In this document: positions 1,396 through 10,982 of the stretch, one piece after another
How positions within the stretch are numbered: the first letter of the stretch is position 1
How the letters are laid out: every line of letters begins with the position of its first letter
NCBI GenBank assembly: GCA_040954595.2
Contig: CM082580.2
Span: 6,269,519 to 6,333,518 of the forward strand
Length of the DNA: 64,000 nt
Origin: Balanoglossus misakiensis
Taxonomy: Eukaryota; Animalia; Hemichordata
Reading direction: 5' to 3'
Made by a program: the position numbers and the translations under genes
The notes under the pieces: generated by a model
What the model was told of the DNA's origin: nothing
What the model saw: only the letters and a program-made list of their open reading frames with translations
Database searches by the model: none

Positions 1396-4300
1396 ATGGG
1401 GAACGCCTTTACAAATCTGTTTAAAACCCTTTTTGGTAAAAAGGAAATGAGAATTTTGATGGTAGGACTCGACGCTGCTGGTAAAACAACAATTTTATAT
1501 AAACTCAAATTGGGTGAAATTGTTACGACGATTCCAACAATTGGTAAGTAATACATACGTCAGGACCTACATGTACTGTAAGCCATGTGAGTGTGTGTCT
1601 GATCATGAATGTTGGTCTTTTTGAGGTGATGATAGTACAGTGCACTTGAGCTGAATCATACATACCAGCTTGGTGAGCTCATATCATACACAAAACTAAT
1701 CAGTTGAATTTTATCACCCATGCCTCATCAATGATAGTCCATTGATTATACACATACAAAACTACATGTAACTATATCTGTGATGATCGTTACATGGTTT
1801 GTGAGTAAATGTGTTGGTTCTTTTATTGGTTAAGTAATGCAGTAGAAATTAGTATTGAGTAGCATGCATACTATTAGCATTTGTGTTTCACCTTCACCTC
1901 AGCCATTGCTGCAAAATTGTAGTAAATAATCTCTGGTGATCAGGGCTAAGTCCCACCCTGATCACCATTGTGTCCTTCAAAAAAAGCTTTTAAAAACTTT
2001 GTTTGGCGGGCACACTGCTTATCTAATGATCATAGAGGAGCATTTGCACTTCAGTTTCAAGTTTGAAACCTGTCTTGTTTCTGTTCACCTGTATGTAGTG
2101 TATTGGTCAACTGTTTTGGGTGCACCAAAACAGCTCTTCAGTACCTGTTAGCCATAGTTAATTTTGCTAGACTAGCTGGATGTAAAATCTTGAATGTTTC
2201 AATTGTTCACTTATAAGCCCAAATCTATATATTAATATAATTTCTATAAAGTATACTTTAAAAATTCATGTGCTTGGGCAACTAACAGCATTCAATGCAC
2301 AGTGCTGACCTTCTAAAGCTCTAGAAATATTCTAGAATATCCTTTCAGGTGTGTAAATTGACCAGTTCATGTTCGATTGTATCTCTAAAGCATGTGTTGC
2401 CACAACCCACAAATAATACCAGCAAGCATGTTGTCAGCTGTGTTTTTCTAGCGTCACACATGGTGCAAAATCGCAGATTTTTTGTTGTATCTATGAATTT
2501 ATTATCGTCAATATGATGCAATATTGTATTGAGGCTTGATATCATAGTGTAGTAAGTTTTTAGTCCCTGTTGAGTCGGGGGGGACTTGTAGATTGGCCTG
2601 TTCGTGCTTGCGTCCGTCTGTCTGTCTATTCTAGCCTTTTCTTGGACTTTCATAAACCAATTAAAATTGACAAGTTGGCACACAGATCAGACCCTGTAGC
2701 GATTGATTTTTTGGGGGTTATCCAAGTCAGACATGACTGCCAAATAGCATTATTTAGTGCTTTTCTCTGCATGTTGAAATTCAATAGCCAGACAAGATTC
2801 AACTGGTTTGTCTCATTGGTGCAAGCATGCAAAAGTTTGTTTTGGATGATACATGTATAATCAGCTCTTACAAACTTTTTGTAGGCTTAGTTCATTTGCC
2901 CCCTTTTGTATGTCATCACATATACACCTAAGATCTGTGAGGAACACATCATTTTGAAGTATGATTATATAAAAACAAAATTGCAAGTATGTGAATTTTT
3001 GTACGGAAGTGGCATTTCACTGAACTGGCGCGTGTATCCAATCAATAATCAGAAGCCAATGTCACATGACTAACCAAGGTGAACAAGGATATGTGCGTAG
3101 ATTGGCTGCAAACACGTCACAAGGACTGCTGTCACTACAACAATTCTAATTCATTCATAGGTACGTATATTGTTTTAGCACGATTTCTCAAAAGAGTTGT
3201 ACACCATGTCATTGCAACAATAGAGACAAGTGCACTTTTGGTCATGGCCCAGCACAGCTTGCTAGCACTGATAGGTGTTTTGGCTGATTAGAATGCTTAA
3301 CTTTCTCAGCCAAAGTTCGTTTCCTTCTATCCACAATATTTCCCTACTAATCAGTGGTGATCCAAAAGTAGACTGCTACGTGTGTGATTGCTAACAGCGA
3401 GAGTAGGGGTGGGGGTGGGGGTGTGTGTGAACTGTCAAGGGATTTTGGAGTATAATTACTGGTATCATCCGGCTTTATTCACATTTGATTTTGAAAAGGG
3501 TTCTTGAAAAGTTGCGAGATCATTTAAACTTCTAATTGTAGAACTGGAAGTGAAGAAATTATATGGTCATATTTTGCTCAAAACTGCGAAGGTGTCTGGC
3601 CAAATGTAAACGCGTGATGTAAAAACGGAAAACATTTCAACTAAATTATTGATCAACTGTTGTGATGGTCTTAAGTGTTTTGTTCTGTTTTTGTATTCAT
3701 TCCGACGGACAACCTGGTTCGATCAGTCAAGCTGATATGTATTTACAGCTTGGATGTAGAAGAATGATCATAAGCATATGTAATCAATTGCCCTCCTATA
3801 TCTCGGCCGTGGTTCCTGTTCATGAAAGCTCGTGGTTCCGAATTCAGGGCCCTAATTTACTACATGCCTCCTACAAGAATAATTGCATAGTCGGTGAAGA
3901 GTAGCATTTCTGTTTTGTGATTTTTCCGTTAGTCTCATCTGATAAATCTGACTGAAACTGGGATTAAATGTACATGCAACAGTGCCTAAGACTATACCAC
4001 CACATAGTTCTAGTGTCAAAGACAAGGTTCAGTTTGTTAATTTGCCTAGCATGAAGATCAAGGCATGTAATAAATTGATCATGATCATTAACTCTTTATT
4101 GCAGCATGATAGAGGCCAAATGTTGAATTATATAATGAACACTGATGGTCACTAGAAAACTTGGATTCATATTCTTGTACATGTTTGCTAATACATATTT
4201 TAACAAAAATATCTTTTTTTTTGTCTTTCTCTTAGGTTTCAATGTAGAAACAGTTGAATACAAGAATATTAGTTTTACAGTGTGGGATGTTGGCGGTCAG

Positions 4301-5215
4301 GACAAAATCAGGCCACTTTGGCGTCATTATTTCCAGAACACACAAGGTAAGAGAGAATTTTCTAATATGGTTTGTACATGTACTTTACGTAAAACATGCA
4401 ATAATAATTGGGTGGGTGGGATGTCAGGAAAGTGTGTTTATGATTGAGACATGATCAAGTATATAGGAGAGCCAATTGCTCGTTGATAAACTGCTTTTAT
4501 TCGTTTCCCTACGTAATGGTTATCAGTCCACAGTAGCCCATCATTTTGTCAGTTTAGTAGCAGCATGAAGTTTAATATACTTGACATCTGTTGGCCGCAT
4601 AGGTTCGCTTTCAAGAATCTGCGATTAACGTACTCAGCATTTGTCTAAGATTATCGCAGGCTAATTTGAAATTATTTTTTCTTCTCCCTCAGGTTTAATC
4701 TTTGTAGTAGACAGTAATGATAGGGAACGTATCGGTGAAGGAAGAGATGAACTTAATAGAATGCTAAATGAGGATGAGCTTCGAGATGCTGTCCTGCTTG
4801 TCTTTGCAAACAAACAGGTAAGATTTGTCTTTGTAATATATTGAGAGACGGAGAAAAACCAGGCTGTTGACAAATTGAGGCATATTATTCTACGGAACAA
4901 CGGTGACTTGAATGATCTAGATGATCAGTTGTGGCTTCTTAGTGTTGCATCCATTTATGTAATATTTTAATGCTCATCGTGCGCGGTGAACATGGCTTGC
5001 TTTAGTTCTGGATCACAAACTGACAGACATTCAACTGTTTTGTTCTCTCCTGACAGGATTTGCCGAATGCCATGTCTGCAGCCGAAGTCACAGACAAACT
5101 AGGACTCCATTCGCTTCGCAACCGTAGCTGGTACATCCAGGCGACATGTGCAACCAGTGGAGATGGTCTTTACGAGGGACTTGACTGGTTAGCAAATCAA
5201 CTGAAGAAAGCGTAA
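1396..5215 (+). CDS. ARF1: Class I ADP-ribosylation factor, isoform A (180 aa): join(1396-1543,4236-4346,4693-4817,5057-5215)
   Basis: Manual splicing gives [32 protein letters not shown]...[13 protein letters not shown]...[35 protein letters not shown]...WLANQLKKA*. Myristoylation Gly2 and G1/G3/G4 motifs present. All introns GT-AG; coding exons 148/111/125/159 nt (543 nt). Confidence 0.95.
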
Positions 5216-10238: not shown

Positions 10239-10282
10239 AATAAAATGTCAAGTGCAGTTTTATGTTTATCAAGCCTAATAAA
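10239..10282 (+). terminator. Poly(A) signals of ARF cassette B
   Basis: AATAAA at 10239-10244 and 10277-10282 inside a block homologous to the end of UTR A. Confidence 0.7.
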
Positions 10283-10982
10283 ATATGTGAAACCAATTTT
10301 CTTTGGAACGATGGCTGGCTGGCTGTTGGTGTGATTTACTCTAAAGGGACATTGCCCTGGTGCTAGGGATGTGCAGCTGTGCACATCCTTGCACTACTGT
10401 AGGTCAGTCTAGTACCCCCCAATACCCCCATGGTCTTTTTGACCTTTGACCCATTATTTTTGATCAAAATGTAGATTTTTGACAAGTATTTAGGCATTCA
10501 AAGATAAGAATGCTTTGTCTTTTGGACCATCAAGGTTTACACCTGTACCAATCTTAGAGAGCTGAGTCAGCAGTGCCCTCAACGGTTTTCCCTTTCAGAG
10601 GGACACACCCTCCCCTCCCCTGATCTTCAGAGTGCTCATGCCCTGTGCTGCTATTCATTCATGTGCCGGTACCATCATTTCCATTATTTGCTGAGTCATG
10701 GTATGTCAGCATTGCCTAGAGTATAACATATTTGATCACTGCTATATTTATCTTGGATTAATCATGCATGCTGAAGATTTTGTAAGTTACCTGGTTTTCA
10801 AGTTTTATCATGACTATTCGGACTTGATCAATAAATTTCTGACTTTCATGTGCAATATCACGTTTTTGTTTAATGTTACAGAGAAAACTCAGCATGGACA
10901 ATGTCAAGGAAACAATTGTTTTTATTTTAAAAAAGAAAGAAAAACATTTCAGAGGAAAGCATTAAAAGCCATCGTATTGTCT

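Follow-up and report, generated by a model that had tools for sequence, protein, structure and literature searches.

An Arf1 gene with one front exon and two tails

The DNA analysed here is a stretch of 64,000 nucleotides (nt) from the acorn worm Balanoglossus misakiensis (assembly GCA_040954595.2, contig CM082580.2, positions 6,269,519 to 6,333,518), referred to below as the window. It contains a gene for the small GTPase Arf1, a switch in membrane traffic, in which one first coding exon is followed by two complete sets of terminal exons, cassettes A and B. The gene is on the plus strand, and all coordinates are positions in the 64-kb window. The layout of one front exon and two intact tails is real in the sequence, and is confirmed by the features described in this section.

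The shared first coding exon (E1, 1357..1543) has its acceptor at 1357, its ATG at 1396 and its donor at 1543. The coding part (1396-1543, 148 nt) encodes residues 1-49, comprising Gly2, the amphipathic helix, the P-loop and the start of switch I. It is present in a single copy, as a preliminary description of this DNA had stated: a tblastn search of the 64 kb with E1 returns only E1 itself, the next match having an E value of 0.47.

Each cassette consists of three exons. Cassette A (4236-5215) has exon 2 at 4236..4346 (111 nt), exon 3 at 4693..4817 (125 nt) and its last coding exon at 5057..5215 (159 nt, stop codon 5213-5215), and gives an open frame of 180 amino acids when spliced to E1. Cassette B (7625-8402) has the corresponding exons at 7625..7735 (111 nt), 7867..7991 (125 nt) and 8241..8402 (162 nt, stop codon 8400-8402), and gives an open frame of 181 amino acids. 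An AG is found at all six cassette acceptors and a GT at every internal donor, and all exons are in phase. The 3' untranslated region (UTR) of A (5216..6609, its extent inferred from the signals and from homology to B) has AATAAA at 6542 and 6580, and that of B (8403..10306) has AATAAA at 10239 and 10277. The earlier claim of two intact cassettes with correct phases, their own stops and twin AATAAA signals thus holds in every part. Matches between the copies in a self-blastn have E values of 1e-46 to 1e-91, i.e., they reflect duplication and not chance, and all seven exon pieces match the Arf domain PF00025 of Pfam.

This is the arrangement of a 3' tandem cassette cluster, or C-terminal tandem exon duplication. 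The terminal exons are homologous, in tandem and in the same orientation; within the 64-kb window one upstream coding exon is shared and is in phase with each cassette; and, at the level of sequence signals, both cassettes end with a stop and a poly(A) signal of their own.

The predicted protein is a class I Arf (Arf1). Its domain is nearest to Arf1 and not to Arf4/5 or Arf6: a profile made with the A exons matches Arf1 chains at 1e-118, Arf4 at 2e-103 and Arf6 at 3e-89. Identity to proteins named Arf1 is 93-96%. Gly2, an intact P-loop, the switch motifs, NKQD and 110-MXXE-113 are all present, the last of these in both cassettes. The exon sizes (148/111/125/162) are the same as in an animal metagenome contig discussed below (L021), and the exon borders agree with other loci.

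Comparison of the two cassettes

The predicted A and B proteins are 95% identical, B being one residue longer (K181). They are identical over residues 1-102, which include the myristoylation glycine, the P-loop and both switches, and consequently the two versions of exon 2 encode the same peptide. At the DNA level, exon 2 differs at 2/111 nt, both synonymous, exon 3 at 15/125 nt and the last coding exon at 15/159 nt. There are nine differences in protein sequence (given as A/B): G/A103, N/M108, N/A112 and V/I123 from exon 3, and S/A135, A/S137, A/S174, N/Q175 and K/N179 from the last coding exon. They are located in helix alpha3, around residues 123-137 and in the C-terminal helix, at surface-type positions, and spare the switch regions. 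Compared with the closest fetched protein, B is identical at 172 of 180 positions and A at 168 of 180, in agreement with the earlier suggestion that B is the more canonical Arf1. The single Saccoglossus Arf1, compared by eye as it appears in the supplement of PMC8358228, matches B at six of the nine sites, A at two and neither at one.

Homology between the copies begins in the intron end before exon 2, where 4153..4235 is near-identical to 7539..7624; the acceptor pyrimidine tract is 92% pyrimidine before B and 77% before A. The intron end together with exon 2 (4157-4360 vs 7542-7749) is 95% identical over 208 columns. Introns 2 and 3 (346 vs 131 nt and 239 vs 249 nt) are unalignable beyond their ends. 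The UTRs can be aligned only in patches, of 69-88% identity, and the block around the poly(A) signals (6454-6609 vs 10155-10306), which contains both AATAAA pairs, is 88% identical over 157 columns.

These values bear on the reliability of the tandem itself, as two haplotypes or two loci might have been set one after the other during assembly. In a related acorn worm, Ptychodera flava, polymorphism is reported to be considerable, with 1.3% single nucleotide polymorphism and allelic scaffolds about 94% identical (PMC4729200). Cassettes A and B are beyond allelic divergence, with a synonymous divergence (dS) of 0.25, nine amino acid differences, unalignable introns and UTRs that align only in patches. 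There is no N in the window, and a collapse through the 95% identical exon-2 repeat would remove cassette A rather than add one. An artefact is accordingly judged to be extremely unlikely.

Selection and gene conversion

The substitution pattern indicates that both cassettes are under purifying selection. Over codons 51-180, A and B differ with dS 0.253 and a nonsynonymous divergence (dN) of 0.042, giving dN/dS 0.167 (Fisher p 3e-6). Site variability was obtained from 173 distinct Arf1-like sequences, derived from 284 P-loop-anchored pieces of 425 fetched proteins; pieces were kept if at least 170 positions aligned at at least 85%. The nine A/B differences are at variable sites (mean variability 0.245 vs 0.063), with 67 of 100000 permutations giving a value as high. 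Near-invariant sites make up 83 of 131 positions, and only one of the nine differences, at position 103, falls on such a site.

Neutral drift was simulated, with a copy scored as passing if it had no stop, intact splice sites and at most nine changes; indels were not simulated. At 0.125 substitutions per site, which is half of dS, 0/5000 copies pass. At 0.06 neutral substitutions per site 55/5000 pass, and at 0.03 the number is 1648/5000. These counts imply that neither copy has been dead for long, although a recent death is compatible with them. The earlier claim that B is unlikely to be a dead remnant is therefore upheld for any long period, by the purifying selection and by the lack of passing copies at 0.125, but not for a recent loss.

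Some tracts are far more alike than the rest. One is 4153-4360 vs 7539-7749, which is 95% identical including 83 nt of intron, and another is codons 138-172, with one difference in 105 nt. These could be due to gene conversion or to a conserved splicing element. The evidence for conversion is only suggestive, because clustering of the purely synonymous codon differences is not significant (2428 of 20000 permutations).

The same tracts enter into a different explanation of the locus, namely that B is a silent orphan. It would derive from the 3' end of a tandem Arf1 paralog or from a partial duplication, would have lost its first exon recently or never had access to one, and would not yet have decayed, helped by conversion from A. 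The likeness of exon 2 with its upstream 83 nt and of codons 138-172 is what conversion would give, a brief silent period fits the simulation counts, and invertebrates commonly have Arf1 duplicated in tandem as a whole gene (14 fused models, see below). It is, however, B that holds the more canonical residues, and its three rare residues (135, 137 and 175) are all off near-invariant sites. All splice sites and both poly(A) signals have been kept while introns 2 and 3 have become unalignable; no vestige of a lost first exon is seen between the cassettes; and L021 also has two intact tails, with a different breakpoint and a higher dS of 0.51. A silent B is, on this balance, improbable.

Search for a second 5' end

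The 5' region of the gene (200..1000, plus strand) is CpG-rich and promoter-like. It includes a probable first exon without coding sequence, which ends at 500 and is followed by a donor GTAAGA at 501. The window reaches only about 400 nt upstream of this exon, and the searches for first exons cover the window. The observed/expected (o/e) ratio of CpG is 1.00-1.21 in bins across 1-1000, and 1.19 overall at the 5' end. The sequence CGCCATNTT, which we take to be a YY1-type promoter motif, occurs at 407 and 605, both at the Arf 5' end, and is absent between the cassettes; it is found five times in the whole window, vs a chance mean of 1.4. The L021 gene has the same upstream arrangement. An Rfam scan of 1-11000 gave no matches.

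The spacer between the cassettes (6610..7538, plus strand) is CpG-depleted, with an o/e ratio of 0.26, and contains no first exon. Permissive blastn and tblastn searches between the cassettes revealed no leftover of either E1 or the upstream region; the best blastn match has an E value of 0.57. In the frame of B exon 2, no first exon was found back to 7495, and the one in-frame ATG, 40 codons upstream, gives no Arf-like N-terminus. The roughly 1 kb between the cassettes thus looks like gene body and not like a promoter. The preliminary description had seen no second first exon between the cassettes, and had named a separate first exon or promoter for B as one of the findings that would overturn its reading; the former observation stands, and the window shows no such exon and no promoter-like DNA before B.

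B might nevertheless have its own 5' end, supplied by trans-splicing or by another first exon outside the window on its upstream side, as in nested genes or in a gene with two first exons and two tails. The window holds only the short upstream segment noted above, and duplicated first exons do exist in Arf1, since isoforms X1 and X2 of Bolinopsis differ only within residues 1-37. Against this, an upstream exon must still skip E1, cassette A and the poly(A) signals of A, and neither the frame of B nor the spacer offers a suitable start or a promoter-like signal. We consider a separate 5' end for B to be very unlikely.

Evidence of partial Arf1 duplications in other animals

Metagenome contigs were scanned for the end of exon 2 with its donor, which gave 21 Arf loci. 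One of these, L021 (animal contig, 9699-4836, minus strand), has the layout E1-E2-(E3-E4)x2, all on a single strand and with both tails intact. All its sites are GT-AG, both frames are of 181 residues, and the tails differ at six residues with dN/dS 0.10 and dS 0.51. An AATAAA follows each tail, and neither exon 1 nor exon 2 recurs between the tails. The proximal tail has N112 and the distal tail S112, which echoes N112/A112 of the acorn-worm cassettes. L021 also has a 24-nt inverted repeat (5764-5787/7083-7106, 88% complementary), which joins the proximal 3' UTR to an intron in the distal tail and could have a bearing on the choice of tail.

In Exaiptasia diaphana, three proteins labelled isoforms X1-X3 (XP_020917326-8) share their first 136 residues; the 9-10 sites at which they differ are all in the remainder, the span of the last exon. 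The layout deduced from these proteins and labels would be 3+1x3, with three alternative last exons. RefSeq isoforms X1/X2 of Bolinopsis are those described above (P0398/P0440), and X1/X2 of Amphiura (P0336/P0362) differ at both ends. For Acropora (P0280) and Mercenaria (P0372), isoform X2 alone is present among the matches listed. The labels in these four animals suggest further Arf1 duplications with a shared promoter or a shared exon.

Fused models of whole-gene tandem Arf1 pairs have a different pattern, in that 14/14 differ in both the exon-1 and the exon-3 spans. This set leaves out P0009 (garbled exon 2), P0013 and P0014 (incomplete second copy), P0038 (identical halves), P0030/P0033 (class II-like), P0023, P0036 and the plant and protist models. 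Partly repeated models from Paralvinella (P0037), Lytechinus pictus (P0024), Oppiella (P0242) and Toxocara (P0243) are possible prediction errors and were not counted.

In a tree of exons 3-4 (273 nt, 10 sequences), A groups with B and the two L021 tails group together. An ancient shared duplication, in which A would be orthologous to the proximal tail of L021, is rejected by the approximately unbiased (AU) test (p 1.6e-41). Concerted evolution or conversion, together with shared codon usage, could give the same tree, and for this reason the case for independent origin also draws on the breakpoints, which differ, and on the UTRs of the acorn-worm gene, which can still be aligned. Other invertebrates appear to have reinvented the same design for Arf1, with other breakpoints.

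Two likely isoforms from one gene

Taken together, these observations make it likely that the acorn-worm Arf1 gene produces two isoforms, by means of alternative terminal cassettes and alternative polyadenylation. The preliminary description had read the partial duplication as a splicing and polyadenylation switch, and that reading gains support from the selection on both cassettes, the lack of a 5' end for B and the recurrence at Arf1. Use of both junctions, including splicing to B, is inferred from the sequence.

Several results weigh against a two-isoform gene. Recent silencing is compatible with the simulation counts at 0.03, and a dead copy could stay in good order through conversion by a live one. 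The CpG ratio is noisy, with two intronic bins at 0.79-0.86, and its signal is moderate. No docking and selector pairing was detected: the conserved segments before the acceptors pair with the upstream DNA no better than shuffles do (5/40 and 31/40 as good). In the metagenome scan, a second tail is missing at six loci (four distinct proteins) that have at least 2.5 kb past the last exon, and the layout is not general, being present at 1/21 loci, most of the others being too short to tell. The Exaiptasia layout is deduced from proteins and labels. Finally, no hemichordate Arf1 or isoform pair is present among the matches listed (at most 15 members of clusters of up to 2668).

If the gene does work as a switch, E1 would be spliced to cassette A and the RNA cleaved near 6600, or else the polymerase would continue and E1 would be spliced to the B acceptor, with A removed as part of an intron. 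The choice would be a race between recognition of the A acceptor with cleavage near 6600, and skipping to the B acceptor, where the stronger pyrimidine tract would help the distal site to compete. Mixed products A2-B3-B4 (4346>7867) and A2-A3-B4 (4817>8241) would also be in frame. Further comparisons revealed no RNA elements that might guide the choice: the best duplex between intron 1 and the spacer has -30.3 kcal/mol vs -27.4 to -35.6 in eight controls, no long inverted repeats are convincing as pairing elements, and the conserved segments before the acceptors and near the poly(A) signals fold no better than shuffles (z 0.70, -0.30, 1.81 and -0.49).

Because residues 1-102 are identical and the nine differences are of surface type, the isoforms would be expected to share the nucleotide cycle and most effectors. 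They would likely differ in membrane targeting or in regulator preference, and each would carry its own 3' UTR.

Relation to known systems

The splicing design is known. In Drosophila CG42235, five to seven multi-exon 3' cassettes are spliced to a common exon, and the account in PMC6191721 places it alongside pipe and PGRP-LC, all of them having, as here, tandem terminal cassettes, a common upstream exon and their own 3' ends. Arf1 differs from these in having two cassettes, which give proteins 95% identical, and in being a housekeeping small GTPase, and the competing RNA pairings described there were not found. Among GTP-binding proteins, human GNAO1 (in which two last coding exons are swapped for a duplicated pair) and KRAS4A/4B are described in PMC8373072, and resemble the present case in their homologous C-terminal parts and alternative poly(A) sites. 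In acorn-worm Arf1 the duplication is larger, covering three exons and 73% of the protein. The term "ARF" is absent from the main text of that paper.

Within the family, Exaiptasia Arf1 is similar in having an identical front and homologous alternative ends, but differs in that only the last-exon span varies, there are three versions, and the annotation is computational. The vertebrate pair ARF1/ARF3, as presented in PMC8339471 and PMC12350278, is a near-identical class I pair with the same Ser174/Ala174 split as B/A. These are, however, separate genes that differ at four N-terminal residues, whereas A and B share their N-terminus. Tandem pairs of complete Arf1 genes (corals, bivalves, echinoderms, Lingula, Aplysia) vary at about 100-123, 135-152 and the C-terminus, as A/B do, but in them a first coding exon belongs to every copy. 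In the window B lacks one, and in this the acorn-worm locus does not fit a pair of whole-gene tandem paralogs.

No description of a partial-duplication design for Arf was found in the literature searched, which omits most subscription journals. The preliminary description knew of no such architecture in an Arf; none was met in the publications searched either, but RefSeq annotates such isoforms in Exaiptasia. The eukaryote-wide Arf survey in PMC8358228 has no "alternative splicing" in its main text and no "splic" in its supplement, and Saccoglossus has one Arf1 entry in its data set. What is new here, on the sequence evidence, is the recurrence of the design at Arf1 with other breakpoints. Arf surveys count genes, and would miss isoforms of this kind. 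If both tails are used, there would be more class I Arf proteins in invertebrates than gene counts indicate, and the same few positions (helix alpha3 and the last helix) would have been varied repeatedly by different genomic routes. The result would be natural matched pairs, with identical anchor and switches, in which to ask which residues steer Arf to the early or late Golgi.

Golgi targeting and residue 174

According to PMC2171843, Arf1 is directed to the early Golgi through membrin by its residues 101-116 (helix alpha3, with 110-MXXE-113). Three of the nine A/B differences are inside this segment, and both tails keep MXXE. At the C-terminus, Ala174 is reported in PMC8339471 and PMC12350278 as one of two determinants of the location of ARF3 at the trans-Golgi network; the second is given as K180 in PMC8339471 and as K178 in PMC12350278. 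Cassette A has Ala174 and B has Ser174. Ala174 is found in 8 of the 425 fetched proteins (120 of which are CDK5 activators), all of them vertebrate. Seven are named ARF3, and the eighth is a hypothetical protein with the same C-terminus as ARF3. That A has an ARF3-like role is no more than a lead, because A and B are alike at 178 and 180, and because a change from Ser to Ala is easily repeated by chance.

A broader proposal would be that invertebrate Arf1 is a recurrent hotspot of isoform-making partial duplication downstream of a single promoter, and that A, the proximal isoform with Ala174 and a changed helix alpha3, is a convergent, ARF3-like Arf biased to the late Golgi. Splicing would here supply what in vertebrates comes from a separate gene. 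The layouts would be 1+3x2 in the acorn worm, 2+2x2 in L021, 3+1x3 in Exaiptasia, two first exons in Bolinopsis, and in Amphiura two entire coding regions that carry the label of one gene. We regard this combined proposal as speculative and rather unlikely.

Neighbouring genes and repeats

Downstream of Arf1, and tail to tail with it, is a gene with the Pfam MMtag domain (10986-13620, minus strand). It is followed by an RPN6/PSMD11-like gene (15437-17800, plus strand) and by a single-exon CDK5 activator gene (CDK5R1, 52124-53014, plus strand), whose product is 96% identical to that of Ptychodera flava, 89% to Glandiceps talaboti and 82% to Saccoglossus kowalevskii. In human, ARF1 is presumably beside the MMtag gene C1orf35, and PSMD11 and CDK5R1 are presumably adjacent. 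If these adjacencies hold, the neighbourhood would be an old linkage block.

A hairpin resembling a miniature inverted-repeat transposable element (MITE) is present at about 8810-8903, in the 3' UTR of B, with terminal inverted repeats, TTAA flanks and a fold z of -4.66. A partial copy (6686-6741) is located in the spacer, just past the poly(A) signals of A, and another copy is at 56793-56878. On a further metagenome contig (L017, 7181-10907), two divergent Arf-like genes are arranged head to head. A long 5-nt microsatellite of the TATTG type, seen as repetitive open reading frames, occupies about 37870-38090 of the window.

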